Positions 10,182 to 34,843 of a stretch of DNA of 34,843 nt are shown one piece after another. This DNA comes from a virus. The notes below the pieces were generated by a model, which saw only the letters and a program-made list of their open reading frames with translations, ran no database searches and had not been told where the DNA came from. Within the stretch, counting starts at the first letter, position 1. The number at the start of each line of letters is the position of its first letter. Where the stretch lies: positions 1-34,843 of IMG/VR virus record IMGVR_UViG_3300037104_000290; one strand, given 5' to 3'. The position numbers and the translations under genes are program-made.

Positions 10182-12967
10182 TATCTGCTCCTCTGCCCGG
10201 CTATAACGGCCTGGGTCTCATCAGCATATTCAACGGATACGTCAGTGATGATGATGTGTTGCGTAGTGTCGATCTGTAGGGATGATGCAAGCGCCCGCCT
10301 ATTCTTTGGTTGAATCCTTGCGCGGTAGAATCCCAGTCCATCCCAGTCAGAGGGATTGATAGTGAGGTCCGCCCTTTGTAGCGTGTATGTGTCCTGATCG
10401 AACGCATGACAGCGCAAAGTTATTGGGACCGGTGAAAGTCCCTCGGGGTGATAAAAAGTCACAACCCAGTTATGCGCAATAGAGAGCTCGTTACCCTTGA
10501 GGGAGTGATACGCCGACTGCCACGTAAAAGGAGCTACAGTAGTAACCGCGGTCCCCCCCGTGGTTGTCGTCGTCCCCCGTGTAGCAAAGTCATACGTCCA
10601 TTTCAACGTATTGTTAGCTATCTGAATCCCCTGCGCGGTATCATAGAGAGTCAAAGATGTCTGCGTTGCCTTTTTATTGTTCTGCGTGACAATCCCGTCT
10701 CGGACCCATACGAAGGTATTGAAAGTTTGAAGCAATAGCGCGTCATCGCGGACGTTGTAGACTCCGTTGATGATAGTCTCGATACCACCTGACGAATTGC
10801 GAAGATCGTTCATGCGCTTGCTTTTCTGTACCGACCTTCCGCCATCGAACGTGTAGATCGAATTGTCAAACGTGGACAGGAAGTACGCGAGATTCGGAGA
10901 GACAGCGATAAACTGCAATCCCGTTGCTGGGCACACGAAGTATTTCGTCTGGTAGAGCGATCCGCTGAAGGACGTCAAGTAGACATTCAAGCCGTCGAAG
11001 ATGTAGCGCTGGCCGTATAGGTAGAGGCTTTCAAATGTTCCCGAGATATCGTTCCCGAGTTCGTATCCGGCATAGTCGTAGTCTATGTCGGGGACTCCGG
11101 CAACGCCGACGCCAAGAAAGAATGTGGACACGTCGCTCCACGCCACTTTATCGCCGAAGGTCGAACCCATAGCGATCGGAAGCCGCGTGTCTGCGACATA
11201 GAGAGAGCTTGTCAGGTCGTAATCAGTGAAGGGATTGTATACTGTGTAGGAATAACCCGATATCGAGAATGTGTAGACATCTGCCAGATAGACGTCTATC
11301 TGATACTTGACATATCTATCAATAAATGTGGGAAGTTCTACTCCGGGAAACTCGTATATTGAAGTCGATGATCCGCTTGTCTGAGCAAACTTAGCTCCGG
11401 TGTCAATGGAATTGGAATAGTCTCCGACTATCTTTGCAACCCACTGGCCGTCCGTACCGCTTCCCGAGTTCCTCATAATGAAACGGCCGTTATAGTCGTT
11501 CACACCAAGTTCAAGAGATCCTTTTTCGGTGTCAACAACGTTGAAAGCAGAAAGGCAGTTGATCATATACACCCGATCGCTGATCTTGTAGATTTCATGT
11601 GCCTGTCCAGATCGAATGTCCACGTAGTACAGTTGACGATTGTACCTATAGACGATTCTCGTATAGGTGGAATTATCGTCTACTACATGCAGCATGAATG
11701 TCGGATCGAACTCTCCGACGTTTGTGATCGGGACTCCGATGTGATCCCAGGTTGTCTTCCCCGACGTGATCGGTGCAACTGAGATGTATGCGGGTTCATC
11801 GTTGACCATTCCAATCCTGACCGATGTCAGGAATGTGCTATTGGCTCCCGCGACATGAATGTCTGTCAATTTCCCATAGGCATTGATTTTCGGGAACGTC
11901 CCGGTGAACACATCAGAACTTAGCCACCCGGGATCTGGTCCACCGTGCTCGAAATCGGGTGCAACATAGAAGTTGACGGCAGGGGCAGTGTCAGATCGGA
12001 TGTACGTGCATTCCACGTATCCCGGTCCGCTGATTGGATTTTTGACCGTGGCTGTCACGGCCCCAAGAGCTACACCGAAATACGTTTGCGTCGCGCTGTA
12101 CACCCCCAAACCGTTGTACCCGACAACGGCATAGCCGGTAAACATATTGGCTGCGTTTTTTGTCGGAGTGTTGTATGTCAGAACAGCCCGTGAATATGAT
12201 GTCCCGACATAACGATCGATGACAACCCATTTTACATTTACGGACTGGGAAATAGCAAGGTTATAGTAGTCCCCAACATCGCCAATCCAGCACTGCTGAG
12301 TAACCGAAGGTGTACCTTGATTCCACAAGAGGTATTTCCCTGCGGCGAATCTCCATGCACTATTGATGGCACTGGTTTCGGTGTTTGTAACCGATGTCCC
12401 CGATTCTTTCAAAATGTATGTCGTGCTGTCGACTATTTGGATTATGAACTCTTGATTTGCCACATACGTCATGTCGACGTATTTAACAAGAGCGACATAC
12501 AGGAATGGCTTTGCCGGCATTCTCGCAAAGGTGATGTCTCTAGTATTGATCACGCTTGCCGTGGCAGGATCGTATTCATCTACCGTGATGACCTTATTGG
12601 CGAGTTTGATTGCAACGAGGGTCCCCGTCGTTGTCCATGCGGCGTCAAGGTACGCCCCCGGAAGGACTCCGCGGCGATACACAGAGCACGGCCCGACGTT
12701 GCCGATCACGGAATTGTTGAGCCTCACGTTGTGGCTGGAATCGACCTGAAGAAGATCCCCGCTCTTCGTGATGATCGAGTTTGCTCCCGCCGTGGCGAAG
12801 GTCGTCTCCTGTTCGTAGATCGTGCTCACCCCACCATTGCGCTCGATCCCAGTGTTCTGGACGATCTGTGTAGGCTCGGAATTGAAGTCATAGGTATCAG
12901 AGCCTGTAGGGTTGTCAGTACAGATGGAGCTTTTGAGATTAAGCGAAGCTCGACTAGTCCCTTTCAT
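10181..12967 (-). CDS. Large tail structural protein (928 aa)
   Basis: ORF 10181-12976 trimmed to ATG 12967 (ATGA overlap with the upstream stop). Assigned by size and position only. Confidence 0.5.
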   Translation of the reverse strand: MKGTSRASLNLKSSICTDNPTGSDTYDFNSEPTQIVQNTGIERNGGVSTIYEQETTFATAGANSIITKSGDLLQVDSSHNVRLNNSVIGNVGPCSVYRRGVLPGAYLDAAWTTTGTLVAIKLANKVITVDEYDPATASVINTRDITFARMPAKPFLYVALVKYVDMTYVANQEFIIQIVDSTTYILKESGTSVTNTETSAINSAWRFAAGKYLLWNQGTPSVTQQCWIGDVGDYYNLAISQSVNVKWVVIDRYVGTSYSRAVLTYNTPTKNAANMFTGYAVVGYNGLGVYSATQTYFGVALGAVTATVKNPISGPGYVECTYIRSDTAPAVNFYVAPDFEHGGPDPGWLSSDVFTGTFPKINAYGKLTDIHVAGANSTFLTSVRIGMVNDEPAYISVAPITSGKTTWDHIGVPITNVGEFDPTFMLHVVDDNSTYTRIVYRYNRQLYYVDIRSGQAHEIYKISDRVYMINCLSAFNVVDTEKGSLELGVNDYNGRFIMRNSGSGTDGQWVAKIVGDYSNSIDTGAKFAQTSGSSTSIYEFPGVELPTFIDRYVKYQIDVYLADVYTFSISGYSYTVYNPFTDYDLTSSLYVADTRLPIAMGSTFGDKVAWSDVSTFFLGVGVAGVPDIDYDYAGYELGNDISGTFESLYLYGQRYIFDGLNVYLTSFSGSLYQTKYFVCPATGLQFIAVSPNLAYFLSTFDNSIYTFDGGRSVQKSKRMNDLRNSSGGIETIINGVYNVRDDALLLQTFNTFVWVRDGIVTQNNKKATQTSLTLYDTAQGIQIANNTLKWTYDFATRGTTTTTGGTAVTTVAPFTWQSAYHSLKGNELSIAHNWVVTFYHPEGLSPVPITLRCHAFDQDTYTLQRADLTINPSDWDGLGFYRARIQPKNRRALASSLQIDTTQHIIITDVSVEYADETQAVIAGQRSR

Positions 12968-14391
12968 CTTACCCAACTCCTGCTTGCATAGGCATTCCTG
13001 ATATGCTCCGGTTGATAAGCATCGCGCTTGATCGTGTCGTGGAATCTATCCCAGAGCATTTTAAGCTTCGTCATATGAGCGGTCGTGTCGGCTGATTGTT
13101 TCGTTCGGTAATCAACGGCGCTCTGCCATGCCATGATTTCGGGTACAAGGTTGTTAGGGTAGCTAAAAGAATAGTTCACCGTCCCGTCAACCCCGAGGAG
13201 TTGCATGTACGGATTTGTGCTCTTGAGCGTCGGGATGATCCACGTCGAGGGAACTTGATTGACATCGTAGACCACCTGTCCAATATCGGTTACAGCGTTG
13301 TCCACTATGTCATCAGTTAGAATCGCGGCAGTCAGTGCGTTGAACGTTACCCTCCGTACGTTCGAGGCGTTGTCCAGAATGTAGAGGAGAGTCGAACTCC
13401 CACCGTCAGAGGTGATCTTAGCGATACTCGAGGCGTAGAGCGGAGTTGCCACGCCCACGATTGACACGATCGATGCGGAGGTCCGGTAGACCGTCACCGG
13501 TCCTATCTGCACCACACTCGTAGCATTAGCTACCGTGTAGACTAGGGCATCGGTTCCGCCAGTGAGATCGCATGACCGAATAGCTGCCGCTGTCGTGTAG
13601 TAGATCGTCCCCGTGTTCGCTATGTAGAATGAGATAACGCCCGCTGGCGTCGTCGCCTGAGTCGGTGCAAGAAATGCCGCTGTCAAGGCTGTCGTCTTGT
13701 ACCAGATGAGTCCGCCTCGTATCCAGTACAGCACCCCCTTGTAGTACACGAGATTCGTCACGGCCCCGGAATCCGTGAAGAGGGCCACGGGAGCTCCTAC
13801 GGTGTTATTGAGGATGTTCTCCGAGGTTATAATTGCTCCGTTTGCGTAGACCATCGTTTCTAGGTATGGCGCATAACAGGGGGCAAGAATTGCAGAGAAA
13901 AGGTTGGGAGAATAGCTCGTCCCATAGACAAAATCCGCTTGCGGACAGGTGATCGTCGAAGTGATAGGATAGTAACCGAGTCTCAGCGTCATCCCGGTAG
14001 CAGGGACTGCCCCACCGATGATCCATAGGTTCGTCCCCTTGATCCTGTAGTATGGATCTCCGGGTTGATCGTCCTTCTGTGCAAGGTTGAACTTGCGGAC
14101 TGGCATCCAGTCGCTCGTGGCGTTCCTGAAATCGAGATATCGCAGTTTTAGGAAGTCATAAGGCAGGGGAAATAGCCACTCGTTAGCGGATCCTGCCACG
14201 GCATAGATAGTCGTGAGAGTGATGGTCAAGTCCGTCACGTAGTAGTCGTCATCGTTTTCCACCAGTTGGTTATAGATATCCTTCCATGATTCGTTGATGC
14301 TGTTGATCTCGTCGAGATGAGAGACAAATAGGCTGTTAGGAAGGTCTGAGGCACTACGTGCTCGGAGAACAATGTCTATTGCTGTCATCAC
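12964..14391 (-). CDS. Tail/adaptor structural protein (~475 aa)
   Basis: ORF 12964-14478. The region 14392-14478 holds the divergent promoter of the moron. Likely start is GTG 14391 or ATG 14388, embedded in the conserved element also seen at 21555-21576. Confidence 0.5.
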   Translation of the reverse strand: MMTAIDIVLRARSASDLPNSLFVSHLDEINSINESWKDIYNQLVENDDDYYVTDLTITLTTIYAVAGSANEWLFPLPYDFLKLRYLDFRNATSDWMPVRKFNLAQKDDQPGDPYYRIKGTNLWIIGGAVPATGMTLRLGYYPITSTITCPQADFVYGTSYSPNLFSAILAPCYAPYLETMVYANGAIITSENILNNTVGAPVALFTDSGAVTNLVYYKGVLYWIRGGLIWYKTTALTAAFLAPTQATTPAGVISFYIANTGTIYYTTAAAIRSCDLTGGTDALVYTVANATSVVQIGPVTVYRTSASIVSIVGVATPLYASSIAKITSDGGSSTLLYILDNASNVRRVTFNALTAAILTDDIVDNAVTDIGQVVYDVNQVPSTWIIPTLKSTNPYMQLLGVDGTVNYSFSYPNNLVPEIMAWQSAVDYRTKQSADTTAHMTKLKMLWDRFHDTIKRDAYQPEHIRNAYASRSWVR

Positions 14392-14442
14392 ACATATAAG
14401 GTATGATCTGGAAAAATAGTCCCGATTCAATTTATATTTTTG

Positions 14443-14472
14443 TTGCAAAACTATATAAAACGGGTGTATAAT
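14443..14472 (+). promoter_or_regulatory. Sigma70-type promoter of the plus-strand moron
   Basis: TTGCAA (14443-14448), 18-nt spacer, TATAAT (14467-14472) preceded by TG. GGAGGA RBS and ATG 14490 follow. Confidence 0.6.
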
Positions 14473-14489
14473 GGCCACAGGAGGACTAT

Positions 14490-14750
14490 ATGAGAAAGAT
14501 CGTTGAAGAGGTTGGGAATGAAGGCTTGGAAAAGTTCCTTGGAGAAGTGGTAACGCTTTTCTGCGCGAACTACATTTATACCGGGATGCTATCGAGGGTA
14601 AACGATACTTGCGTTCTACTCACCGACCCATCGATTGTCTATGAGACAGGAGCGTTTTCCAATAAAGGATGGAAGGACGCACAGAAATTACCCTCAAAGG
14701 AGTGGTACGTCCAGACCTTAGCCATTGAGAGCTTTGGAAAGATGAAATGA
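14490..14750 (+). CDS. Small globular phage protein (family pattern FCANYIYTG.L..VND.CV.L.D.SIVYETG), function unknown
   Basis: ORF 14490-14750 with a strong promoter and SD. Distant pattern similarity to the 27135-27410 product. Confidence 0.65.
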   Translation: MRKIVEEVGNEGLEKFLGEVVTLFCANYIYTGMLSRVNDTCVLLTDPSIVYETGAFSNKGWKDAQKLPSKEWYVQTLAIESFGKMK

Positions 14751-15001
14751 CCATCAGAACTATTCATAGTCGATATCGACGCCGGAGCGGGAGAGGGAGC
14801 GGGAGCGGGAGCCGGAGCTGGAGCGGGAGCTGGAGCTGGAGCTGGAGCCGGAGCGGGAGCTGGAGCGGGAGCTGGAGCGGGAGCCGGAGCTGGAGCGGGA
14901 GCGGGAGCCGGAGCTGGAACGGGAGCTGGAGCGGGAGCCGGAGCTGGAGCGGGAGCGGGAGCCGGAGCTGGAGCGGGAGCTGGAGCGGGAGCCGGATATG
15001 A
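14747..15001 (+). CDS. Dipeptide-repeat protein (Ser-[Gly/Arg/Trp])n
   Basis: ORF 14747-15001 with ATGA overlaps at both ends. The alternative reading is (Pro-Ala)n on the minus strand, ORF 14639-15043. Confidence 0.45.
   Translation: MTIRTIHSRYRRRSGRGSGSGSRSWSGSWSWSWSRSGSWSGSWSGSRSWSGSGSRSWNGSWSGSRSWSGSGSRSWSGSWSGSRI
14783..14994. repeat. About 35 tandem copies of the hexamer NGGAGC (N = G/T/C) with a 54-nt higher-order duplication
   Basis: Units counted directly. Only position 1 varies, apart from two single substitutions (gggaga, tggaac). Units 18-26 and 27-35 repeat the order C T G G C T G T G. Confidence 0.95.
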
Positions 15002-15315
15002 AAAAGCCTGTCTTGATTTTGGTTCTAGTGCTCTGTCTTGCATCCTTATCCTATGCCGATTCTTTCTCTATCTTTCCTGATTTCACCTTCCGTCAATCAT
15101 TAGATTTGGTCCTAGGGGGTTCTGCGTGCCTTTCCGTGCTTGTTAGCACGGCCTACCTTCCTGACGTCCTTACAAATGCTCCTAGGAACGAATGGGATAT
15201 GGCTCAAGCCTTGTCTATCATAGCCGTTTGGATAATCTCGGAAGTAACGATCGGCTCCATAGGCAATAATGGAACTACAATCTCAATCCAGGGGTTCCAT
15301 ATAGGCTCTCTATAA
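14998..15315 (+). CDS. Secreted/membrane protein (signal peptide plus one TM)
   Basis: ORF 14998-15315. MKKPVLILVLVLCLASLSYA signal-like start and ALSIIAVWIISEVTIGSIG hydrophobic segment. Confidence 0.6.
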   Translation: MKKPVLILVLVLCLASLSYADSFSIFPDFTFRQSLDLVLGGSACLSVLVSTAYLPDVLTNAPRNEWDMAQALSIIAVWIISEVTIGSIGNNGTTISIQGFHIGSL

Positions 15316-15319
15316 AAGA

Positions 15320-15340
15320 GGGGGGCCTTGTGAGCCCCCC
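15320..15340. terminator. GC hairpin between convergent genes; intrinsic terminator for the capsid gene, possibly bidirectional
   Basis: GGGGGGC-cttgtga-GCCCCCC. On the minus strand it is followed by CTCTTTTATA. Confidence 0.65.
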
Positions 15341-15391: not shown

Positions 15392-16789
15392 CTAGTGAGC
15401 TCCAAAGTCAACCACTGCACCATGTCCTGGCTCCCTATATGCGAAGTTCCCGAGCAAGCTCACGCTGATCTGAGCCGCAGGCCCTTCCGTGGAGGTCGAG
15501 TTGCCGGTTATGCTGATGTAATCGTCAATGTTGAGTTTGAACGTGGTGTCAGGCTCTTCCTGATTTTCGTCAGCAGCCGCAGCTCCCGGTTCATTACCTT
15601 CAACGCCATCCTTGATGATCTTTTCGGCGTTGGTATAAGTGACGAACTCCATGACCTCGCGGTCGAGGATCCACGCATACCCCAGCGGGCAGAAAGGATC
15701 GTCGTACACGTACTCGATCCAGTTCGTGCTCATGGCGAAGCGAAGGGCTGAGAGACCACGAGCTACCTCGTTCTTCTGATTCTTGGCTCCCGTGGTGTTG
15801 ATCTGCTGCATCATGGCGGTCTGCTGGTTCATCTCGCCGTTCATCGTCAGCCAGTCGTTGTCGTTGAGAGCGATCATGTCCGGGACTCCACCGCCCCTGC
15901 GGACATACGCCACACCGTTAACGAGAGCATCCATGTAGAGCTGCCCGTTAGTCTTCTGGTAATACCACCCGGCAAGCATATTCGTGCTTGCGTTTCTGGT
16001 GACTCCATAGAAGGGCGTCGCGTTGTATGCCGCCCAGTTGGCACCCGTTCGGGTCCCCAGGTAGGGAATCCATCCAGCGAGCCCTGTAGGCATGTTGGGA
16101 GCGAGCCCCGCATCACGTCCACCGTTGATGTAGATCATCGATCCAGCCGCCCAGGGAGTAGCGCCAACAACACCGCCTGTCCAAGTGATCGTATTTCCGT
16201 CGATCGCTGACACATTACGTACCGTCGCATCATAGGCCGCAGCACTAGGAAGCGTACCCGTAGCAGCGAATGGAATCACAAGGAACTGTGACCCGATTGC
16301 CAGCTTACATATGGTGTCCGAGTTAAGCGTCGCCGTAGCGGCACCCGTAGCTACAACGCTCGGAAGATATCCGATATCCCCGATCCCATAGCCATAGAGA
16401 CATGCGCCAAAGTTTTTCCGGGTGCTCTCGCACGAGGCGAAGAACTTGAGGCCCAGCGCCTTGAGATATCCACCGCGTTTCGTCCTAGCACCGAGATACT
16501 CTTTCTGCGTGACGTTGAACACGGTGAAGATGTTGCCCGTGGTGACAGCCATTTCAGCAGTCTTTGCGGAGCTCGCGGCATTCGCCACAGCCACCGTGTA
16601 GTCACCGCTCGTGTTACCACCCCTGTCATATGGGATGGTGAACTGATAGGTTTGGCCTTCCCATTTGTTGATCTCGATCTCACGCCCTACCGGGGAGCTT
16701 CTGAAAAAGCATCCACGAATGCGCTTATCGGTGTAATACCGTTTGTATGCCCCCAAAAGAAAGGCATCAGCGGTTACCTGTTGTGCCAT
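15392..16789 (-). CDS. Major capsid protein
   Basis: 465-aa ORF with AGGAGG SD, directly after a scaffold-like gene and followed by a terminator. Assigned by position and size. Confidence 0.65.
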   Translation of the reverse strand: MAQQVTADAFLLGAYKRYYTDKRIRGCFFRSSPVGREIEINKWEGQTYQFTIPYDRGGNTSGDYTVAVANAASSAKTAEMAVTTGNIFTVFNVTQKEYLGARTKRGGYLKALGLKFFASCESTRKNFGACLYGYGIGDIGYLPSVVATGAATATLNSDTICKLAIGSQFLVIPFAATGTLPSAAAYDATVRNVSAIDGNTITWTGGVVGATPWAAGSMIYINGGRDAGLAPNMPTGLAGWIPYLGTRTGANWAAYNATPFYGVTRNASTNMLAGWYYQKTNGQLYMDALVNGVAYVRRGGGVPDMIALNDNDWLTMNGEMNQQTAMMQQINTTGAKNQKNEVARGLSALRFAMSTNWIEYVYDDPFCPLGYAWILDREVMEFVTYTNAEKIIKDGVEGNEPGAAAADENQEEPDTTFKLNIDDYISITGNSTSTEGPAAQISVSLLGNFAYREPGHGAVVDFGAH

Positions 16790-27134: not shown

Positions 27135-27410
27135 ATGGAAAAGAAGACGGTTTTGACAGGATTTGCTATCGTCGTCTGTGATCGGGGTTTTGTGTATGTC
27201 GGCCAGATGACCCATGATGGAGAGTTCGCCGTGCTCGAAGGAGCCCGCAATATTCGCTACTGGGGAACGACAAACGGGCTCGGGGAGCTGGCGCTCAATG
27301 GTCCGACGAGCAAAACGAAGCTGGATGCCTGTGGGACTGTTCGCGTCCCGGCGCATGCGGTCATCAACATCCTCGATACGGAGGCAAGAAAATGGCCGTC
27401 CTCGAAGTAA
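27135..27410 (+). CDS. Small conserved phage protein (pattern VVC..G.VYVG......VLEGARNIRYWG...GLGELA..GP), function unknown
   Basis: ORF 27135-27410 with GGAGG SD. I recognise the pattern as a recurrent small phage family. Confidence 0.7.
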   Translation: MEKKTVLTGFAIVVCDRGFVYVGQMTHDGEFAVLEGARNIRYWGTTNGLGELALNGPTSKTKLDACGTVRVPAHAVINILDTEARKWPSSK

Positions 27411-27694
27411 CGCTCGACGGTTCCGGTTACGGTTACGGTTACGGTTACGGTTACGGTTCCGGTGACGGTGACGGTTACGGTTACGGTTCCGGTGACGGTT
27501 ACGGTTACGGTGACGGTTACGGTTCCGGTTCCGGTTACGGTTACGGTTACGGTGACGGTTCCGGTTACGGTTACGGTTACGGTTACGGTTCCGGTTACGG
27601 TTACGGTTCCGGTTACGGTTCCGGTGACGGTTACGGTTCCGGTGACGGTAACGGTTACGGTTCCGGTTACAGTGACGGTGACGGTGACGGGTAA
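27392..27694 (+). CDS. Dipeptide-repeat protein (Gly-[Tyr/Ser/Asp/Asn])n
   Basis: ORF 27392-27694. GGAGG at 27380-27384, 7 nt before the ATG. Overlaps the upstream gene by 19 nt. Confidence 0.6.
   Translation: MAVLEVTLDGSGYGYGYGYGYGSGDGDGYGYGSGDGYGYGDGYGSGSGYGYGYGDGSGYGYGYGYGSGYGYGSGYGSGDGYGSGDGNGYGSGYSDGDGDG
27419..27691. repeat. About 45 tandem hexamers GGT-[T/G/A][A/C]C
   Basis: Read directly: ggttac, ggttcc, ggtgac, one ggtaac, one agtgac. Confidence 0.95.
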
Positions 27695-29676: not shown

Positions 29677-30528
29677 ATGACAGGCTACAAGGTATTCACG
29701 TACGACAGGCGCCCGCCGGTGCAGGGTGGTGATCCCATCTGGGACGGGGCGATGCCCTACGACCTGCCTACCGTTAAGCTGGATCGCGGCGCTGCGGAGT
29801 GCGCGGCAGGTTGGCATTTCTGCTTGTCTCTACCAATCGCTCTGCGCATTGTAGGGCTGTGGCCCGATGGTCGACCGTCGTGCGTGGCCGCAGTTGAGGC
29901 TGATGACGTGGTGGAGCGAGAGGAGAAATGTCGCGCGGCTACCCTACACCTCACGCGTTGGCTGGACGAGGCGGAGATCAGAGACGGTGTGCTGGAGATG
30001 TCGGCTCCGTTTGGCGCGCACGCAGAGACGATGACCTCCGAGCAGATGTCGTGGCGCACAGCTCTGGCTCGGCCTCAACACGACCGTGCTAACGTAGAGG
30101 CAGGACTACATATAGCGATGGCGACGCGGGGATTGGACTGGCAACTCAGAGAGTTTCCAACCGCCTGGGACGCCAGGGCCGCCAAGGACACCTGGGACGC
30201 CAGGGACGCCAGGGCCGCCAGGGACGCCAGGGCCTCCTGGTCCGCCTGGGACGCCTGGGACGCCAGGGCCGCCTGGTCCGCCAGGGCCGCCTGGGACGCC
30301 AGGGCCGCCTGGGCCGCCTGGGCCGCCAAGGACACCTGGGACGCCAGGGCCGCCTGGGCCGCCATGGTGGTCTATTACGTTGCTCTAATGGGATGGATCA
30401 AATATCCTGCGGATCTGCTCACCGACGGGCTCCGCGATGCGTACTCATTCGGTCTCGGGATTGCTCTGCCGACTGGACCGAGAGAGTTGGGATGGGCGAT
30501 GGATGCCCACGAGGGGAGGACGAGGTGA
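29677..30528 (+). CDS. Repeat protein paralog A: YKVF...GWHFC N-terminal domain plus (Ala-[Trp/Arg/Lys]-[Asp/Ala/Ser])n array plus conserved tail
   Basis: ORF 29677-30528. AAGGAGA SD. The N-terminal pattern GYKVF...C..GWHFC is a recurrent phage domain of unknown function. Confidence 0.75.
   Translation: MTGYKVFTYDRRPPVQGGDPIWDGAMPYDLPTVKLDRGAAECAAGWHFCLSLPIALRIVGLWPDGRPSCVAAVEADDVVEREEKCRAATLHLTRWLDEAEIRDGVLEMSAPFGAHAETMTSEQMSWRTALARPQHDRANVEAGLHIAMATRGLDWQLREFPTAWDARAAKDTWDARDARAARDARASWSAWDAWDARAAWSARAAWDARAAWAAWAAKDTWDARAAWAAMVVYYVALMGWIKYPADLLTDGLRDAYSFGLGIALPTGPRELGWAMDAHEGRTR
30163..30363. repeat. About 22 tandem 9-nt units GCC-NGG-G[A/C]C (variants ACC, TCC, AAG)
   Basis: Read directly, in frame with the CDS. 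Confidence 0.9.
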
Positions 30529-30731
30529 CGTGGCATCTCCTCGGAAGCATGTCCGGCCGAACTGAGCATGTGCTCAAGTACGGGTGTGATCAATACCCGG
30601 GACTCATGAAAGAAATCCTGACCAGCATTCGAAACGGTCACCCTACCGTCCGAGTTGAGACGAGCTACTACTGGGAGGCATCGAAAGAGATATACGATAT
30701 GGTAGATGCTGCTCTCGAGGCCAGGAAGTGA
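30525..30731 (+). CDS. Hypothetical 68-aa protein
   Basis: GTG 30525 in a GTGA overlap with the paralog A stop, using the same GGAGGA SD module that precedes the methyltransferase at 124. Confidence 0.45.
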   Translation: MTWHLLGSMSGRTEHVLKYGCDQYPGLMKEILTSIRNGHPTVRVETSYYWEASKEIYDMVDAALEARK

Positions 30732-30807
30732 TGGAAGGGACATCTCGAATACGAATATCGATCTTTTCACTTGAGTTCTGTAGATCAAACCTGAGAAGGA
30801 AGGGGTT

Positions 30808-30839
30808 GGAAACCAAGAGGTGGTTTCCTCTTTTCTTTC
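30808..30839 (+). terminator. Rho-independent terminator
   Basis: GGAAACCA-agagg-TGGTTTCC followed by TCTTTTCTTTC. Confidence 0.75.
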
Positions 30840-30987
30840 GGCCCTTTGTTGTACGTCCCTATCTCTCTATCGGGGGAAGTACAATATATCCGGCATCGAG
30901 GGAAAAATGTCAATACTTGCAAAACGATTCTGAATCGATTTCACTTGCTTTCCAAAAGATATCAAGAAAAATGTGTTAAAAAAGGTA

Positions 30988-31014
30988 TTGACAAGATGCA
31001 CAAAATGATAGCAT
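30988..31014 (+). promoter_or_regulatory. Second early promoter, similar to the one at 26958
   Basis: TTGACA (30988-30993), then TG-extended TAGCAT (31009-31014) with a short 15-nt spacer. Shares tattgacaag and TGATAGCA with the 26958 promoter region. Confidence 0.45.
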
Positions 31015-31039
31015 GATTTGTTGGAAGGGGGAGGCGTGG

Positions 31040-31249
31040 ATGGGCAAGAAAAAACTAACGAAACCCGCAAGGAGAGCCATTCTGATTCGCATTCATCCCT
31101 GGATGTATACCGCACTCAAGGCTGAGGCGAAGGCGTCCATGATACCGACAAGCGTCAATCGTTTGGTGGTGGAGGCACTTCTGGACAAGTACCGCAACAT
31201 TTCCGTTTCTCTGGGAGCAAAGGTAAAGGGACATGAGCTTCCAAGATGA
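31040..31249 (+). CDS. Ribbon-helix-helix DNA-binding protein
   Basis: ATG 31040 within ORF 31013-31249 (GGGGGAGG SD). ILIRIHPWMYTALKAEAKASMIPTSVNRLVVEALL fits the RHH pattern. Confidence 0.6.
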   Translation: MGKKKLTKPARRAILIRIHPWMYTALKAEAKASMIPTSVNRLVVEALLDKYRNISVSLGAKVKGHELPR

Positions 31250-31490
31250 CATTCTCCGACGAGCAATCAAGACAATCTCAGAGGATTTGTTCCCGGAGAC
31301 TCTGGAGAAGCTACGCAAAAAGGCGCGAGATGAACATCTGACCTTACAGCAGCAACTCGACATGATAACCGAAGAGGCAATGCGCGGATACGTCGAGCCT
31401 GATTCCTTGAAAGGTCGCAAAGAGCCGGAGAAGATTATTCCTCCGCCTTCGGTCAGGGACGGCAAGTCCGCTGCGGCTGGAGATACGTAG
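31233..31490 (+). CDS. Small RHH-like protein, paralog of 2321-2593
   Basis: ORF 31233-31490. About 80% identity at protein and DNA level to 2321-2593. Confidence 0.7.
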   Translation: MSFQDDILRRAIKTISEDLFPETLEKLRKKARDEHLTLQQQLDMITEEAMRGYVEPDSLKGRKEPEKIIPPPSVRDGKSAAAGDT

Positions 31491-31837
31491 AATGATGTCT
31501 CTCATGCGCGGGGTCACGATGTGTCGGTCAGTCAAGGCGGGTTCACTCCCGCCATCCCCACAACCCGGGCCTCACAATCATTGCCCCAGGGTGCGCGCGC
31601 GTTTGGTGCGAGGTTGCAAGCGGGTGGAAAGCCCGCATTTCATGCCCCCGACCGCAACGCGAAAAATCATCGCGTGGTGCGCGACCGGAGAGCGACGAGT
31701 GTTTGCAACGTGACACCGTTCAACTCGGCGCGGGGGCTCGAGGGGGAAGTGGTACCAACGGCGCGAGTAAAGAGGAAAAAAAGACGAGCGTCTGCGCATA
31801 CGCTTCCCCGACTTTTTCAAGGGAGAAAGGAGAGACA
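31491..31837 (+). ncRNA. GC-rich non-coding stretch with multiple hairpins: candidate structured RNA or replication origin
   Basis: No credible ORF; all frames give Arg/Pro-rich nonsense. Hairpins: GGCGGG-ttcact-CCCGCC (31536-31553), GCGGG-tggaaag-CCCGC (31620-31636), ACGCGA-aaaatca-TCGCGT (31657-31675). Possible long-range GCCCCCG/CGGGGGC pairing, and AGCGT-ctgcgcat-ACGCT followed by a T-run. Confidence 0.3.
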
Positions 31838-32419
31838 ATGCAGTACGGAAGATTTTTCGAGATTGGCAAGGGCATCCTTTGCGACCAGCTCCGTTTTCTG
31901 GCGGTCGCCGTCGCGGAAGATATGATGCGGTACTTCATGCAGTACATCCGCGTCGAACAGGCTGAGGAGGGATTGCGCGCTGTCGCGTCGGACGGAAGAC
32001 GGCTACACCTCGTTACCAAACTTGCCCCGAAAGCCGCAATGGAGGGGATCGTGCCCGGAGCCTATGCCGTGATGAAGAAGACAGGTCGGTCGATCTGGCT
32101 CGTGAAGATCGAGGAAGGCGCCGGCGACTTTCCCGACTACAAACGCATTTTCAAAGAGGAGCCCCCAACATTCGAGGGCAAATGGCGAGGGATGCAGAAG
32201 AACACCGCGTCACTGTTCGAGTTGTGCTATTCCTTCCCGGAACCGACAGCGCTGAATCTGCGGTACCTGGAGGACATCGGCGCCGAGGAGTGGACGGTGA
32301 AATGGTGGGCTCCCAGCTACGGCGTTCTTTTCGAGGCCAAGGATCGACAGGCCGTCATCATGCCGATCGATCTAAAGCAGGAAAACTTCGTCCGGCAGGA
32401 AAATAAGGAATCGGCATAA
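31838..32419 (+). CDS. Half-size DnaN (beta sliding clamp)-like protein, 193 aa
   Basis: ATG 31838 (AGGAGA SD) within ORF 31703-32419. LRAVASDGRRLHLV resembles the clamp ATDGHRLA motif, GDFPDYKRIF resembles GRFPDY, and ALNLRYLEDIG...AVIMPI resembles the clamp C-terminus. Confidence 0.55.
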   Translation: MQYGRFFEIGKGILCDQLRFLAVAVAEDMMRYFMQYIRVEQAEEGLRAVASDGRRLHLVTKLAPKAAMEGIVPGAYAVMKKTGRSIWLVKIEEGAGDFPDYKRIFKEEPPTFEGKWRGMQKNTASLFELCYSFPEPTALNLRYLEDIGAEEWTVKWWAPSYGVLFEAKDRQAVIMPIDLKQENFVRQENKESA

Positions 32420-32460
32420 GCCTTTCGTCTCATAGGCAAGGAAGGGCGAGGAGGCGAAAG

Positions 32461-33027
32461 ATGAGGATAATGGATGCGATGCTGGCGGGGGCGTGCAGGG
32501 AGCAGCGGGAGCGCTTTGCAGCCGAATGGCCTGATGGAGCCGAGGTTACGGAGGCTAACGTGCTGCGGGCGTTCGTCCTTGGGTTGGACGTAGACTGGCT
32601 CTTGAGCCATGTCCTGCCGGCCCCGCTGTGGGCGGAGTACCAGCGGCAGGAGGACCCGCTGTTGGCGGAGTACGAGCGGCAGAGGGCCCCGCTGTTGGCG
32701 GAGTACCAGCGGCAGAGGGCCCCGCTGTGGGCGGAGTACCGGTGGCAGGAGGACCCGCTGTTGGCGGAGTACGAGCGGCAGAGGGCCCCGCTGTTGGCGG
32801 AGTACCAGCGGCAGAGGGCCCCGCTGTTGGCGGAGTACCAGCGGCAGGAGGCCCCGCTGTTGGCGGAGTACCAGCGGCAGAGGGCCCCGCTGTGGGTGGA
32901 GTACCAGCGGCAGGAGGCCCAGCTGTTGGAGGAGTACCAGCGGCAGAGGGCCCCGCTGTGGGCGGAGTACCAGCGGCAGAGGGCCCCGCTGATCGTAGCG
33001 ATGCTGGAGCGAGGAGGCGAGAGATGA
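32461..33027 (+). CDS. Repeat protein: ~55-aa N-terminal domain plus 11 copies of an 11-residue unit AEYQRQRAPL[L/W]
   Basis: ORF 32461-33027 with GAGGAGG SD. ATGA overlap with the next gene. Confidence 0.7.
   Translation: MRIMDAMLAGACREQRERFAAEWPDGAEVTEANVLRAFVLGLDVDWLLSHVLPAPLWAEYQRQEDPLLAEYERQRAPLLAEYQRQRAPLWAEYRWQEDPLLAEYERQRAPLLAEYQRQRAPLLAEYQRQEAPLLAEYQRQRAPLWVEYQRQEAQLLEEYQRQRAPLWAEYQRQRAPLIVAMLERGGER
32622..32992. repeat. About 11 tandem 33-nt units
   Basis: Read directly. The region is open in all three plus frames and one minus frame. Confidence 0.9.
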
Positions 33028-33212
33028 CAAGACCGAAAGAGCTGATCCGCGCTGGGCTGTCCCTGCGGACAATCTACCGCCGAGCCGGCGCGCTGCGGGA
33101 GGCGCTGGTGAAGGTGAGGAGAATTGTCGAATCCGAAGCCTCAGTAAACGTACAGGTTAAAGTCGCCAAGATTGTTGGCGCCGCCCTTGCGGCCCACAAA
33201 GGAGATAGGTAG
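33024..33212 (+). CDS. 62-aa basic protein, possible helix-turn-helix
   Basis: ATG 33024 (ATGA overlap). MTRPKELIRAGLSLRTIYRRAGALREAL. The next ATG directly follows its stop. Confidence 0.45.
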   Translation: MTRPKELIRAGLSLRTIYRRAGALREALVKVRRIVESEASVNVQVKVAKIVGAALAAHKGDR

Positions 33213-33950
33213 ATGTGTGACTTCTTTTCGTTTTGCTCCTACAACGAGACGTATTTGTATTCGGAATGGGAAGATCGAAAACGGGACTTTGAGCGCGCCG
33301 ACAGTCACACTGCGATCCTCATGCGAGCCGGTATCGATGTGCGCAAGCAGGAGAACTGGCAGAAGTACGAGTACAACTTACTGACAAAGGCATTCTTCGT
33401 GGACACGCCCGATTTGGGGGGAAATCACGATGTCGCCCGTCGTTGGGTCGAGCGTTTGGACTGGTCTACCATCGTTCCGGACCTGGCGATCAAGCCTATC
33501 GTCAACCCGTTTGAGTTGCAACCTCCGTCTATTACGGACGAGCATGTAAGATTGCTCGCGGCGTGGAACAGTGTGGGGGCCAGTGTGAGGGACAGTATGG
33601 GGGCCAGTGTGAGGGACAGTGTGGGGGCCAGTGTGTGGAACAGTGTGGGGGACAGTGTGTGGAACAGTATGGGGGTCAGTGTGAGGGACAGTGTGGGGGC
33701 CAGTGTGTGGAACAGTGTGGGGGACAGTGTGTGGAACAGTGTGGGGGCCAGTGTGAGGGCATACATATCGTCGTTTTTCACGATCAAATATAGTCACGAT
33801 CCAACCTCGGCTGTGCTCCTGTGGGATCAGGGGATCGTCCCGTCCTTTGACGGTACCACGTGGAGGCTACACGGAGGGAGAGACGCTAAGGTGCTGTACA
33901 CGATATCCGCAAAGGATCTTGCGGCCCACGAGGGGAAGGAGAAATCATGA
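33213..33950 (+). CDS. Repeat protein: MCDFFSF...SH N-terminal domain plus 16 tetrapeptide units Ser-Val-[Gly/Arg/Trp]-[Ala/Asp/Asn] plus C-terminal domain
   Basis: ORF 33213-33950 with AAGGAGA SD. The flanking-domain patterns (MCDF.S, LW..G.VPSFDG..WRL) recur in phage/bacterial hypothetical proteins I recall. Confidence 0.75.
   Translation: MCDFFSFCSYNETYLYSEWEDRKRDFERADSHTAILMRAGIDVRKQENWQKYEYNLLTKAFFVDTPDLGGNHDVARRWVERLDWSTIVPDLAIKPIVNPFELQPPSITDEHVRLLAAWNSVGASVRDSMGASVRDSVGASVWNSVGDSVWNSMGVSVRDSVGASVWNSVGDSVWNSVGASVRAYISSFFTIKYSHDPTSAVLLWDQGIVPSFDGTTWRLHGGRDAKVLYTISAKDLAAHEGKEKS
33570..33761. repeat. 16 tandem 12-nt units AGT-GTG-NGG-[G/A][A/C/T]C
   Basis: Each unit read directly. The NGG codon is GGG, AGG or TGG. 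Confidence 0.95.
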
Positions 33951-34843
33951 CAGGCTACAAGGTATTCACGTACGACAGGCGCCCGCCGGTGCAGGGTGGT
34001 GATCCCATCTGGGACGGGGCGATGCCCTACGACCTGCCTACCGTTAAGCTGGATCGCGGCGCTGCGGAGTGCGCGGCAGGTTGGCATTTCTGCTTGTCTC
34101 TACCAATCGCTCTGCGCATTGTAGGGCTGTGGCCCGATGGTCGACCGTCGCGCGTGGCCGCAGTTGAGGCTGATGACGTGGTGGAGCGAGAGGAGAAATG
34201 TCGCGCGGCTACCCTACACCTCACGCGTTGGCTGGACGAGGCCGAGATCCGCGACGGCGTGCTGGAGATGTCGGCTCCATTTGGAGCGCACGCAGAGACG
34301 ATGACCTCCGAGCAGATGTCGTGGCGCACAGCTCTGGCTCGGCCTCAACACGACCGTGCTAACGTAGAGGCAGGACTACGTATAGCGCTGGCAACGCGGG
34401 GATTGGACTGGCAACTCAGAGAGTTTCTGACCGCCTGGGACGCCAGGGCCGCCAGGGCCGCCTGGGCCGCCTGGGACGCCAGGGACGCCTGGGACGCCTG
34501 GGACGCCTGGGACGCCAGGGCCGCCTGGGACGCCGGGGCCGCCGGGGACGCCTGGGACGCCTGGGACGCCAGGGCCGCCAGGGCCGCCAGGGCCGCCTGG
34601 GACGCCAGGGCCGCCGGGGCCGCCAGGGACGCCTGGGACGCCTGGGACGCCTGGGACGCCGGGGCCGCCTGGGCCGCCATGACTGTGTGCTATACATCCC
34701 TGATGGGATGGATCAAATATCCTGCGGATCTGCTCACCGACGGGCTCCGCGATGCGTACTCATTCGGTCTCGGGATTGCTCTGCCGACTGGACCGAGAGA
34801 GTTGGGATGGGCGATGGATGCCCACGAGGGGAGGACGAGGTGA
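33947..34843 (+). CDS. Repeat protein paralog B (longer array). Its stop overlaps the GTG start of the methyltransferase across the circular junction
   Basis: ORF 33947-34843. The N-terminal 162 aa differ from paralog A at only a handful of positions. Confidence 0.75.
   Translation: MTGYKVFTYDRRPPVQGGDPIWDGAMPYDLPTVKLDRGAAECAAGWHFCLSLPIALRIVGLWPDGRPSRVAAVEADDVVEREEKCRAATLHLTRWLDEAEIRDGVLEMSAPFGAHAETMTSEQMSWRTALARPQHDRANVEAGLRIALATRGLDWQLREFLTAWDARAARAAWAAWDARDAWDAWDAWDARAAWDAGAAGDAWDAWDARAARAARAAWDARAAGAARDAWDAWDAWDAGAAWAAMTVCYTSLMGWIKYPADLLTDGLRDAYSFGLGIALPTGPRELGWAMDAHEGRTR
34433..34678. repeat. About 27 tandem 9-nt units GCC-NGG-G[A/C]C
   Basis: Read directly. The NGG codon is TGG, AGG or GGG. 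Confidence 0.9.

Follow-up and report, generated by a model that had tools for sequence, protein, structure and literature searches.

The virus record IMGVR_UViG_3300037104_000290 of IMG/VR was analysed over positions 1 to 34,843, and this whole stretch, to which we refer as the window, represents an entire virus genome of 34.8 kb that carries direct terminal repeats. Its plus strand carries a small cassette that contains an array of 35 NGGAGC hexamers (14783-14996). The array is the repeat body of an open reading frame (ORF) at 14747-15001, which would encode an 84-residue peptide made up of a basic leader, MTIRTIHSRYRRR, and a run of Ser-[Gly/Trp/Arg] repeats, and which follows ORF1 (14490-14750), the gene for an 86-residue protein with a predicted Sm/LSm fold that is the constant partner of the array gene. 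A Shine-Dalgarno (SD) sequence, AGGAGG, was read off at 14479-14484, 5 nt upstream of the ORF1 ATG, and a consensus scan placed a sigma-70-like promoter for the cassette at 14443-14472 (TTGCAA, 18 nt, TATAAT; a pattern match at 10 of 12 positions). An earlier reading of the letters alone (hereafter the original prediction) had noted ATGA overlaps at both ends of the peptide ORF, and these are present: ATG 14747 overlaps TGA 14748-14750, and ATG 14998 overlaps TGA 14999-15001. We hypothesize, with a probability of about 0.85, that the NGGAGC array as a whole is best explained as the coding body of a plus-strand gene that is coupled to the gene for an Sm-fold protein, the two forming a mobile phage module.

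Tandem Repeats Finder placed the array at 14784-14996, with periods of 12 and 18, 87% matches and scores of 279 and 314, and direct reading resolved it into 35 hexamers in the NGGAGC register from 14783, which confirms the array as first described. The accompanying statement that only the first base of each unit varies was right in that N is G, T or C only, but two units are also changed at other bases, with AGA for AGC at 14792-14794 (Ser to Arg) and AAC for AGC at 14918-14920 (Ser to Asn). A recent duplication of nine units, likewise part of the original prediction, is real because the array matches itself best when shifted by 54 nt (self-identity of 0.931, compared with 0.84-0.90 for other offsets below 108) and because the string of variable letters holds a 9-unit block twice in succession (CTGGCTGTG CTGGCTGTG), with one more difference, GGAACG versus GGAGCG; in the GGAGCN register the two 54-nt copies are units 17-25 and 26-34. 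The 5' end of the array (14789-14809) holds, on the coding strand, a single canonical G-quadruplex motif, (G3N3)3G3, and such motifs are much more numerous in related arrays of the GGGTCG type. A G-quadruplex element was considered and dropped, there being only this one G3N3 motif here.

On the minus strand the variable base of the hexamer falls at the wobble position of Pro (CCN), and in the plus-strand GGA GCN frame at that of Ala (GCN). Synonymy within the array therefore cannot choose the frame, because the wobble falls in two frames by geometry and the units are copies rather than independent substitutions. The frame has to be sought in homologous loci. Relatives of ORF1 numbered 95 in IMG/VR (80 retrieved), 394 among metagenome contigs (80 retrieved) and 21 in genome bins, and the locus set comprised the 129 loci that contain a homologue of ORF1 followed by at least 150 nt of sequence, an array gene being called where an ORF contained at least five consecutive X-Ser units. 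Such an ORF adjoins ORF1 in 110 of the 129 loci, and about six more have short or decayed versions. The spacing between ORF1 and the peptide gene ranges from -17 to +71 nt across loci, a 4-nt start/stop overlap with ORF1 being found in 66 of the 110, and 21 of the 110 carry two to four peptide genes in tandem per ORF1. Among the loci with tandem repeat-peptide genes, which are sometimes in different frames (L012, L013, L015, L016, L023, L053, L069, L179, L197), one array therefore shows as Gly-Leu or Val-Met in the frame of the next gene.

Strictly periodic arrays are present in 83 cases, built from NGGTCT (31), NGGTCG (28), NGGAGC (15) or NGGTCA (8-9, owing to one odd array) units. Read in the plus-strand frame in which NGG is followed by a serine codon, every one of them gives (Gly/Trp/Arg)-Ser and all 83 are open, with Ser filling 1,226 of the 1,257 even positions and Gly, Trp or Arg filling 1,226 of the 1,257 odd ones. 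The plus-strand Gly-X frame is open in 79 of 83 and reads Gly-Leu in 31, Gly-Arg in 28, Gly-Ala in 15 and Gly-Gln/His in 9, while the minus-strand X-Pro frame, open in 74 of 83, yields Arg-Pro (59 arrays), Ala-Pro (15) or stop-Pro (9). The original prediction had proposed comparing the array among relatives for a frame that is preserved, and in this comparison only the plus-strand Ser-X frame is always open with its residues retained.

Serine is retained by way of AGC, TCG, TCT and TCA, of which AGC is unreachable from TCN by single silent steps; parsimony on the ORF1 tree gave about 22 switches between AGY and TCN, a rough count from a quick tree of an 86-residue protein. The choice among these codons tracks the G+C content of the flanking DNA (AGC 0.55, TCG 0.54, TCT 0.42, TCA 0.38), and the serine codon therefore behaves as a translated codon would. 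In locus L049 the array combines TAC, CGC and GGC with TCG, giving Tyr/Arg/Gly-Ser, and the mix of aromatic residue, Arg and Gly is thus maintained with other codons. Short basic leaders, such as MRGLKQKYR, are conserved despite synonymous changes.

A clade from Nitrospinaceae genome bins (L190, L192-L195) offers the same comparison on DNA in which no nucleotide repeat is left. Here the gene after ORF1 encodes a 51-residue peptide with Ser at alternate positions and Trp, Arg, Gly and Lys in between, so that it resembles a 'fossil' of the Ser-X repeat. The pooled ratio of non-synonymous to synonymous change (pN/pS) in the Ser-X frame of this gene is 0.21, indicating purifying selection, against 2.6 and 1.45 in the other plus frames and 1.5, 0.38 and 1.5 in the minus frames, and the differences are distributed over the codon positions as 33:43:125. 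Some of the bin contigs are 84 kb to 3.4 Mb long (up to 3.4 Mb for L183), and the conserved 51-residue peptide suggests that the copies are long-resident prophage or chromosomal genes of one bacterial family. Because the comparison of 83 arrays and the pN/pS values of the de-repeated clade agree, we consider the plus-strand Ser-X frame, ORF 14747-15001, to be the translated one, and the ATGA overlap indicates that translation of the peptide is coupled to that of ORF1.

Three other accounts of the array were weighed against a translated plus-strand gene. The first, which we regard as very improbable, is that the array acts as RNA, its GGAG motifs on the plus strand holding or sponging ribosomes and setting the translation of the gene at 14998. 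There are indeed 34 GGAG in the 213-nt array, close to the 35 or so originally counted, and the last GGGAG (14987-14991) lies 6 nt upstream of ATG 14998, where, alongside the ATGA overlap, it can act as the ribosome-binding site of that ORF. The array contains no GGAGG or AGGAG core at all, however, and the gene downstream, which had been put forward as a signal-peptide gene, is an ORFan. The related arrays speak more broadly: the dominant serine unit in 125 of them is TCG (57), TCT (30), TCA (8) or AGC (30), GGAG arises only in the AGC type, and an SD sponge therefore fails as a function of the family because most relatives (95 of 125) lack GGAG. Neither is a close downstream gene commoner after the GGAG type, a gene start within 15 nt of the peptide-gene stop being found in 10 of 24 GGAG-type arrays compared with 40 of 68 TCN-type arrays, and RNA folding of the array region was no better than that of shuffled sequence, with no structure beyond composition (z = -0.29). 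The standby or sponge element of the original prediction is thus not upheld as a selected function, while a local translational side effect is conceivable in this one phage, where internal GGAG motifs may affect elongation.

Lower still in probability is the view that the minus-strand ORF at 14639-15043 is the true gene, with a (Pro-Ala)n product and the variable base as its silent wobble. The ORF with its long Pro-Ala run is present as described, is open, has an ATG start with AGGA 5 nt upstream, and renders all of the N variation synonymous. This synonymy had been taken as a signature of purifying selection, but it follows from the geometry noted above, is found equally in the plus-strand Gly-Ala frame and is uninformative for a Pro-Ala gene; the relatives read mostly Arg-Pro in this frame, and pN/pS in the equivalent frame of the de-repeated clade ('- 0') is 1.5. 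The minus ORF would also overlap ORF1, a gene with more than 1,200 relatives, in antisense, and it is placed between the terminator-like hairpin of the capsid gene and the promoter-like site of the next minus-strand gene. We regard it as a (Pro-Ala)n shadow ORF, unsupported as a gene.

Least probable of all is reading of the plus-strand Gly-Ala frame by stop-codon read-through from ORF1, with which the frame is in phase past the TGA and in which N is silent, for the frame has no start codon, becomes Gly-Leu or Gly-Arg in most relatives, has a pN/pS of 2.6 in its equivalent in the de-repeated clade, is not kept in phase over the range of spacings between ORF1 and array, and has no long fused products in the database. 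An alternative genetic code or TGA read-through was considered and dropped, and so was a programmed frameshift fusion, because the spacing and phase of the two genes vary.

The peptide read from the Ser-X frame has an extreme composition. Its 84 residues include 34 Ser, 16 Gly, 13 Arg and 12 Trp, with an isoelectric point of 12 and a net charge of about +12.6; it has no hydrophobic or signal segment and is probably disordered. The 130 complete members of the family have a median length of 63.5 residues (26-135) and a median net charge of +10, and 79% of their residues are Ser, Gly, Arg or Trp. The codons follow a strict pattern, in that 1,218 of 1,257 non-serine positions are NGG (GGG 473, TGG 379, AGG 212, CGG 154), which is to say Trp (TGG) and its first-base neighbours, and synonymous third-base change is nearly absent, GGT or GGA occurring at just 4 of 477 Gly codons. 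We infer, with higher confidence, that selection maintains Ser at alternate positions and, between these, a mixture of Trp, Arg and Gly. In the mechanism that we propose, Trp, whose sole codon is TGG, would be the founding residue of the repeat; first-base changes of TGG, which yield Gly or Arg, would be favoured; and turnover of the array would be too quick for neutral third-base changes to spread. A constraint on GG at the nucleotide level, or a targeted mutational process, is a possible alternative.

ORF1 belongs to a large family of at least 1,232 protein clusters at E ≤ 0.001, all of them 'hypothetical' or unnamed. Its alignment has a mean column identity of 69% and 14 invariant residues; Asn38, after strand 2, is nearly invariant, and Glu52, Asp63 and Glu80 are among the invariant residues. 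For comparison, the uridine pocket of the Sm1 and Sm2 motifs has Asn or Asp in loop 3 and Arg-Gly or Lys-His in loop 5, and the alignment contains no Arg-Gly motif. A search of the Protein Data Bank with the ORF1 profile gave nothing better than E 0.1, and LSM was only a weak lead in the Atlas (score 0.83). The fold comes from the structural model: AlphaFold2, run on 45 sequences, returned a predicted local distance difference test score (pLDDT) of 93 and a predicted template modelling score (pTM) of 0.81, with a helix at residues 12-16 followed by six strands. The matches listed by Foldseek were all of the Sm/LSm type (LSm, Sm, Edc3, LSm14), at template modelling (TM) scores of 0.5-0.66, and VIA-align gave Z scores of 10.2 for 6ppv_A (root mean square deviation of 2.5 Å over 67 residues) and 10.1 for 1n9r_A, the chains listed among the 35 at Z ≥ 8 being Sm, LSm and other Sm-fold proteins, including Hfq. 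On this basis the ORF1 product can be confidently modelled as an Sm/LSm fold, a small beta-barrel in which a short N-terminal helix precedes a strongly bent antiparallel sheet of five strands.

The pair of genes travels without fixed company. When all the ORFs of 81 loci were clustered, no conserved neighbour beyond ORF1 itself emerged. The neighbours that can be named are an Erf-type annealing protein (10 loci), a single-stranded DNA-binding protein, a DNA polymerase exonuclease and HNH endonucleases, and because of these we take the usual home of the module to be an early DNA-metabolism region. The closest IMG/VR relative of the module (L006, 3382-5535) has an ORF1 product 80% identical and the same unusual peptide leader, MTINTIHSR; its neighbours are, on one side, a gene whose product has a nucleotidyl-transferase (ligase-like) KxDG motif and, on the other, a tyrosine-recombinase-like gene, and it lies in the early or lysogeny region, not the structural region, of a probably temperate phage. 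The module is common in phages of freshwater, groundwater, sediment and soil and is found in no cultured phage; a search of GenBank phage proteins returned it from one record only, also uncultured (MW202825.1), and a search of the literature for the module, the peptide motifs or a phage Sm-like protein with a repeat gave nothing relevant beyond the comparators cited below. Judged by the spread of its homologues, it is a mobile two-gene unit in more than 100 uncultured phage and prophage loci. The array itself appears to evolve through in-frame gain and loss of units: in 20 of 47 pairs with ORF1 DNA at least 97% identical its length differs, by 6-150 nt and always by a multiple of 3, these lengths being taken from metagenome assemblies, in which repeats can be mis-assembled.

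We stress that this risk of mis-assembly is one of several points that count against a conserved peptide gene paired with an Sm-fold gene. About 10% of ORF1 homologues have no array, and the missing third-base change is explained only by the argument from array turnover. On the side of the partner, ORF1 matches no Pfam family at E ≤ 0.01, LSM, Hfq and Phage_Hfq included, and no Sm sequence motif was recognised in it. The ORF1 family is mildly acidic, with a median net charge of -3, which is unusual for RNA-binding Sm proteins. As for the pairing, a fused Sm-plus-repeat protein was not found among the longer ORF1 relatives, the four longer ones being N-terminal extensions or a chimera, and the charge of ORF1 does not correlate with that of the peptide across loci (rho 0.005).

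A second module of similar design lies in the same genome at 27135-27694, where the gene for a 91-residue protein (27135-27410) is followed by an overlapping gene (27392-27694) whose product consists of MAVLEVTLDGS and a (Gly-[Tyr/Ser/Asp])n repeat with a net charge of -12. Relatives L167-L172 keep the pairing, with a Gly-[Tyr/Ser/Asp/Asn/Phe] repeat gene at the corresponding place. For the 91-residue protein, too, the model is an Sm fold (pLDDT 87; highest Z 8.8, to 6ppv_A; nearly all top rows Sm, LSm or Hfq), and profile comparison found no sequence relation between it and ORF1 (probability 0.1%). Net charges in the family of the 91-residue protein run from -1 to +4. Core and peptide are oppositely charged in both module types; with no more than two types to compare, we take this as a hint and not as a finding.

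What the pair might do can be considered only tentatively. The view that we favour, though we hold it with less than even confidence, is that the two products form a two-part complex that binds or condenses nucleic acid and is made early in infection. The Sm-like protein would form a ring that docks the peptide, through the leader, through opposite charge or through both, and the docked peptide would serve as a low-complexity tail detached from the core, its Arg and Trp residues binding and condensing RNA or single-stranded DNA early in infection, an arrangement that resembles the Arg-Gly tails of eukaryotic Sm proteins but is made as a separate chain. A more specific and more speculative form of this proposal is that many uncultured phages carry a minimal two-chain kit for ribonucleoprotein granules, in which an Sm-like ring is combined with a detached peptide that has Trp and Arg as 'stickers', Ser and Gly as 'spacers' and nothing else. 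This peptide would condense RNA or single-stranded DNA, and its length and sticker pattern would be quickly retuned by repeat slippage and by first-base switching of TGG to GGG, CGG or AGG, with the module carrying the acidic Gly-Tyr/Asp peptide as its sister. If true, such a kit would be a bacterial-virus counterpart of the eukaryotic Sm/LSm proteins with low-complexity tails.

The main rival to a nucleic-acid-binding complex, which we think somewhat unlikely, is a pair of the toxin-antitoxin or effector-chaperone kind. The cationic Trp/Arg peptide would then harm membranes or block ribosomes or nucleic acids, in the manner of Arg/Trp antimicrobial peptides, the phage 'disruptin' or poly-Gly-Arg, and the acidic Sm-like protein would neutralise or deliver it. 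Two small overlapping genes with the structured product first, opposite net charges (-3 versus +10), genes that are never fused, and movement of the module among unrelated phages, here with a predicted promoter of its own, are all what such a pair would display. Set against this, two to four peptide genes per partner, as in the 21 loci with tandem genes, are unusual for toxin-antitoxin systems; the genes usually found next to the module serve DNA metabolism and not lysis; the peptide lacks the hydrophobic or signal segment noted above; the acidic, Tyr-rich peptide of the second module misfits an antimicrobial-peptide model; and the three cassette proteins gave no match in PADLOC (E ≤ 0.1), Pfam or NCBIfam.

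A precursor of the ribosomally made, post-translationally modified type (RiPP), with the upstream protein as its recognition element, is hardly probable, for although the leader-plus-core layout, the tandem precursor-like genes in 21 loci and the small partner of about 85 residues would suit it, no conserved modifying enzyme, protease or exporter lies nearby in the 81 loci and the partner is modelled with an Sm fold instead of a PqqD-like winged helix.

Several known systems share features with the module. The eukaryotic proteins SmD1, SmD3, SmB and LSm4 carry Arg-Gly or Arg-Gly-Gly (RGG) tails, which add unspecific RNA contacts and drive assembly. Like them, the phage pair combines a small Sm-fold core with a cationic, disordered dipeptide-repeat segment; unlike them, it makes the repeat as a separate polypeptide from an overlapping gene, the two ORFs being separate in all loci, its repeat is Ser-X with Trp instead of Arg-Gly, and its core is acidic and lacks a Pfam LSM match, and there is no evidence of common descent. 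The Arg-Gly tails of Sm proteins are mentioned, for example, in PMC1064884. Sm ribonucleoproteins and other proteins of Borgs carry amino-acid tandem repeats (Schoelmerich et al., PMC9879509; 10.1101/2022.05.18.492195, section 2.4.1). As in the phage module, a mobile element combines an Sm protein with near-perfect, fast-evolving repeats, which have a unit divisible by three and form disordered regions, and features of the amino-acid tandem repeat (aaTR) type are found here as well, namely a near-perfect repeat of 35 x 6 nt within ORF 14747-15001 and rapid change of length. The Borg repeats differ in that they extend the same polypeptide at its N terminus, in units of 4-17 residues, and the Sm cores there retain the Sm1 and Sm2 motifs, whereas the phage repeat is a 2-residue unit in a gene of its own, in bacteriophages.

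Among phage proteins, T4 has GoF, MotB.1 and Frd.2, early proteins whose LSm-like character was seen only by predicted structure and which are suspected of a role in RNA stability (PMC12152347). ORF1 is comparable to these and to PF23874 Phage_Hfq as a small phage protein that is LSm-like by predicted structure only, but it has no sequence relation to them, and a repeat-peptide partner is not described for those proteins. The split two-gene layout and the Ser-X/Trp grammar are absent from the Sm-tail, Borg and T4 comparators.

Two further likenesses concern the repeat by itself. The Ser-Asp (R) regions of staphylococcal Clf/Sdr proteins are also long X-Ser dipeptide repeats encoded by a short-period array, and against family models the peptide gave only sub-threshold matches to such Ser-Asp adhesins (E about 0.01, 14 bits compared with cut-offs of 999-2,500 bits); the Clf/Sdr regions are acidic spacer domains in large wall-anchored proteins, and the match is compositional. 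The GGGGCC expansion of C9orf72 yields dipeptide repeats that include Pro-Ala and Gly-Ala, and those containing Arg bind RNA and ribosomes. Like the phage array it consists of G-rich hexamers and has several open frames, spread over both strands, with a different dipeptide repeat in each, but its translation is a pathological, non-AUG process on an intronic repeat, while the phage frame has the properties of a gene of the ordinary kind, conserved and initiated at AUG.

An array of hexamers with five or six open frames is readily annotated wrongly or dismissed, and the comparison of arrays with differing units, together with clades in which the repeat has decayed, provides a way to choose the translated frame. 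Peptide genes of 26-135 codons such as these are largely invisible to current annotation pipelines, and it is unusual for an RNA-chaperone fold to be paired with a peptide so extreme in composition. Should nucleic acids be bound or condensed by the pair, the function of low-complexity tails could be studied in a very small and tractable system, and the pair would be a new class of early phage function.

The cassette, a self-contained unit of the module and an added ORFan, is flanked by two minus-strand structural genes, the gene for a capsid-like protein of 465 residues (15392-16789) and the next gene. Five phages (L001-L005) with capsid proteins 57-86% identical have different small genes here, or just about 100 nt, and because these capsid relatives carry other cargo or none at the site we regard the cassette as an inserted, moron-like unit. 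Relatives of the cassette that are 90-100% identical are P0001 and P0002; no DNA similarity to GenBank phages was found, and the cassette proteins matched nothing in Pfam, PHROGs, PADLOC or NCBIfam beyond compositional noise. On the far side of the cassette, the 504-residue ORF listed at 12964-14478 (minus strand) most likely starts at GTG 14391, not at 14478, because in the alignment of N-termini its relatives begin at the matching MT(A)xD(I/V)(V/I)LRAR. A start at 14391 leaves a divergent intergenic region, with promoter-like sites at 14443-14472 on the plus strand and 14477-14450 on the minus strand.

Downstream of the peptide gene, ORF3 (14998-15315, plus strand) encodes a 105-residue product with a signal-like N-terminal segment and two further hydrophobic segments. 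It has no relatives in IMG/VR, matched only itself among 5.8 billion protein clusters and gave no family match; it lies outside the conserved module and encodes perhaps a membrane protein that is young or evolves fast, if it is a gene at all. A G+C-rich hairpin with a T-run on its minus-strand side, found by a terminator scan at 15320-15340, separates the cassette from the convergent capsid gene.

Repeat proteins are found elsewhere in this genome as well. The ORFs at 29677-30528 and 33947-34843 share a near-identical N-terminal half of about 170 residues, after which they have runs of the Ala-Trp-Asp and Ala-Arg-Ala type, with Trp, Arg and Gly alternating at one position. Because these other repeat proteins (29677-34843) show it too, switching among Trp, Arg and Gly appears to be genome-wide in this phage. 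Further repeat proteins are encoded at 32461-33027, with 11-residue repeats, and at 33213-33950, with 8-residue repeats.

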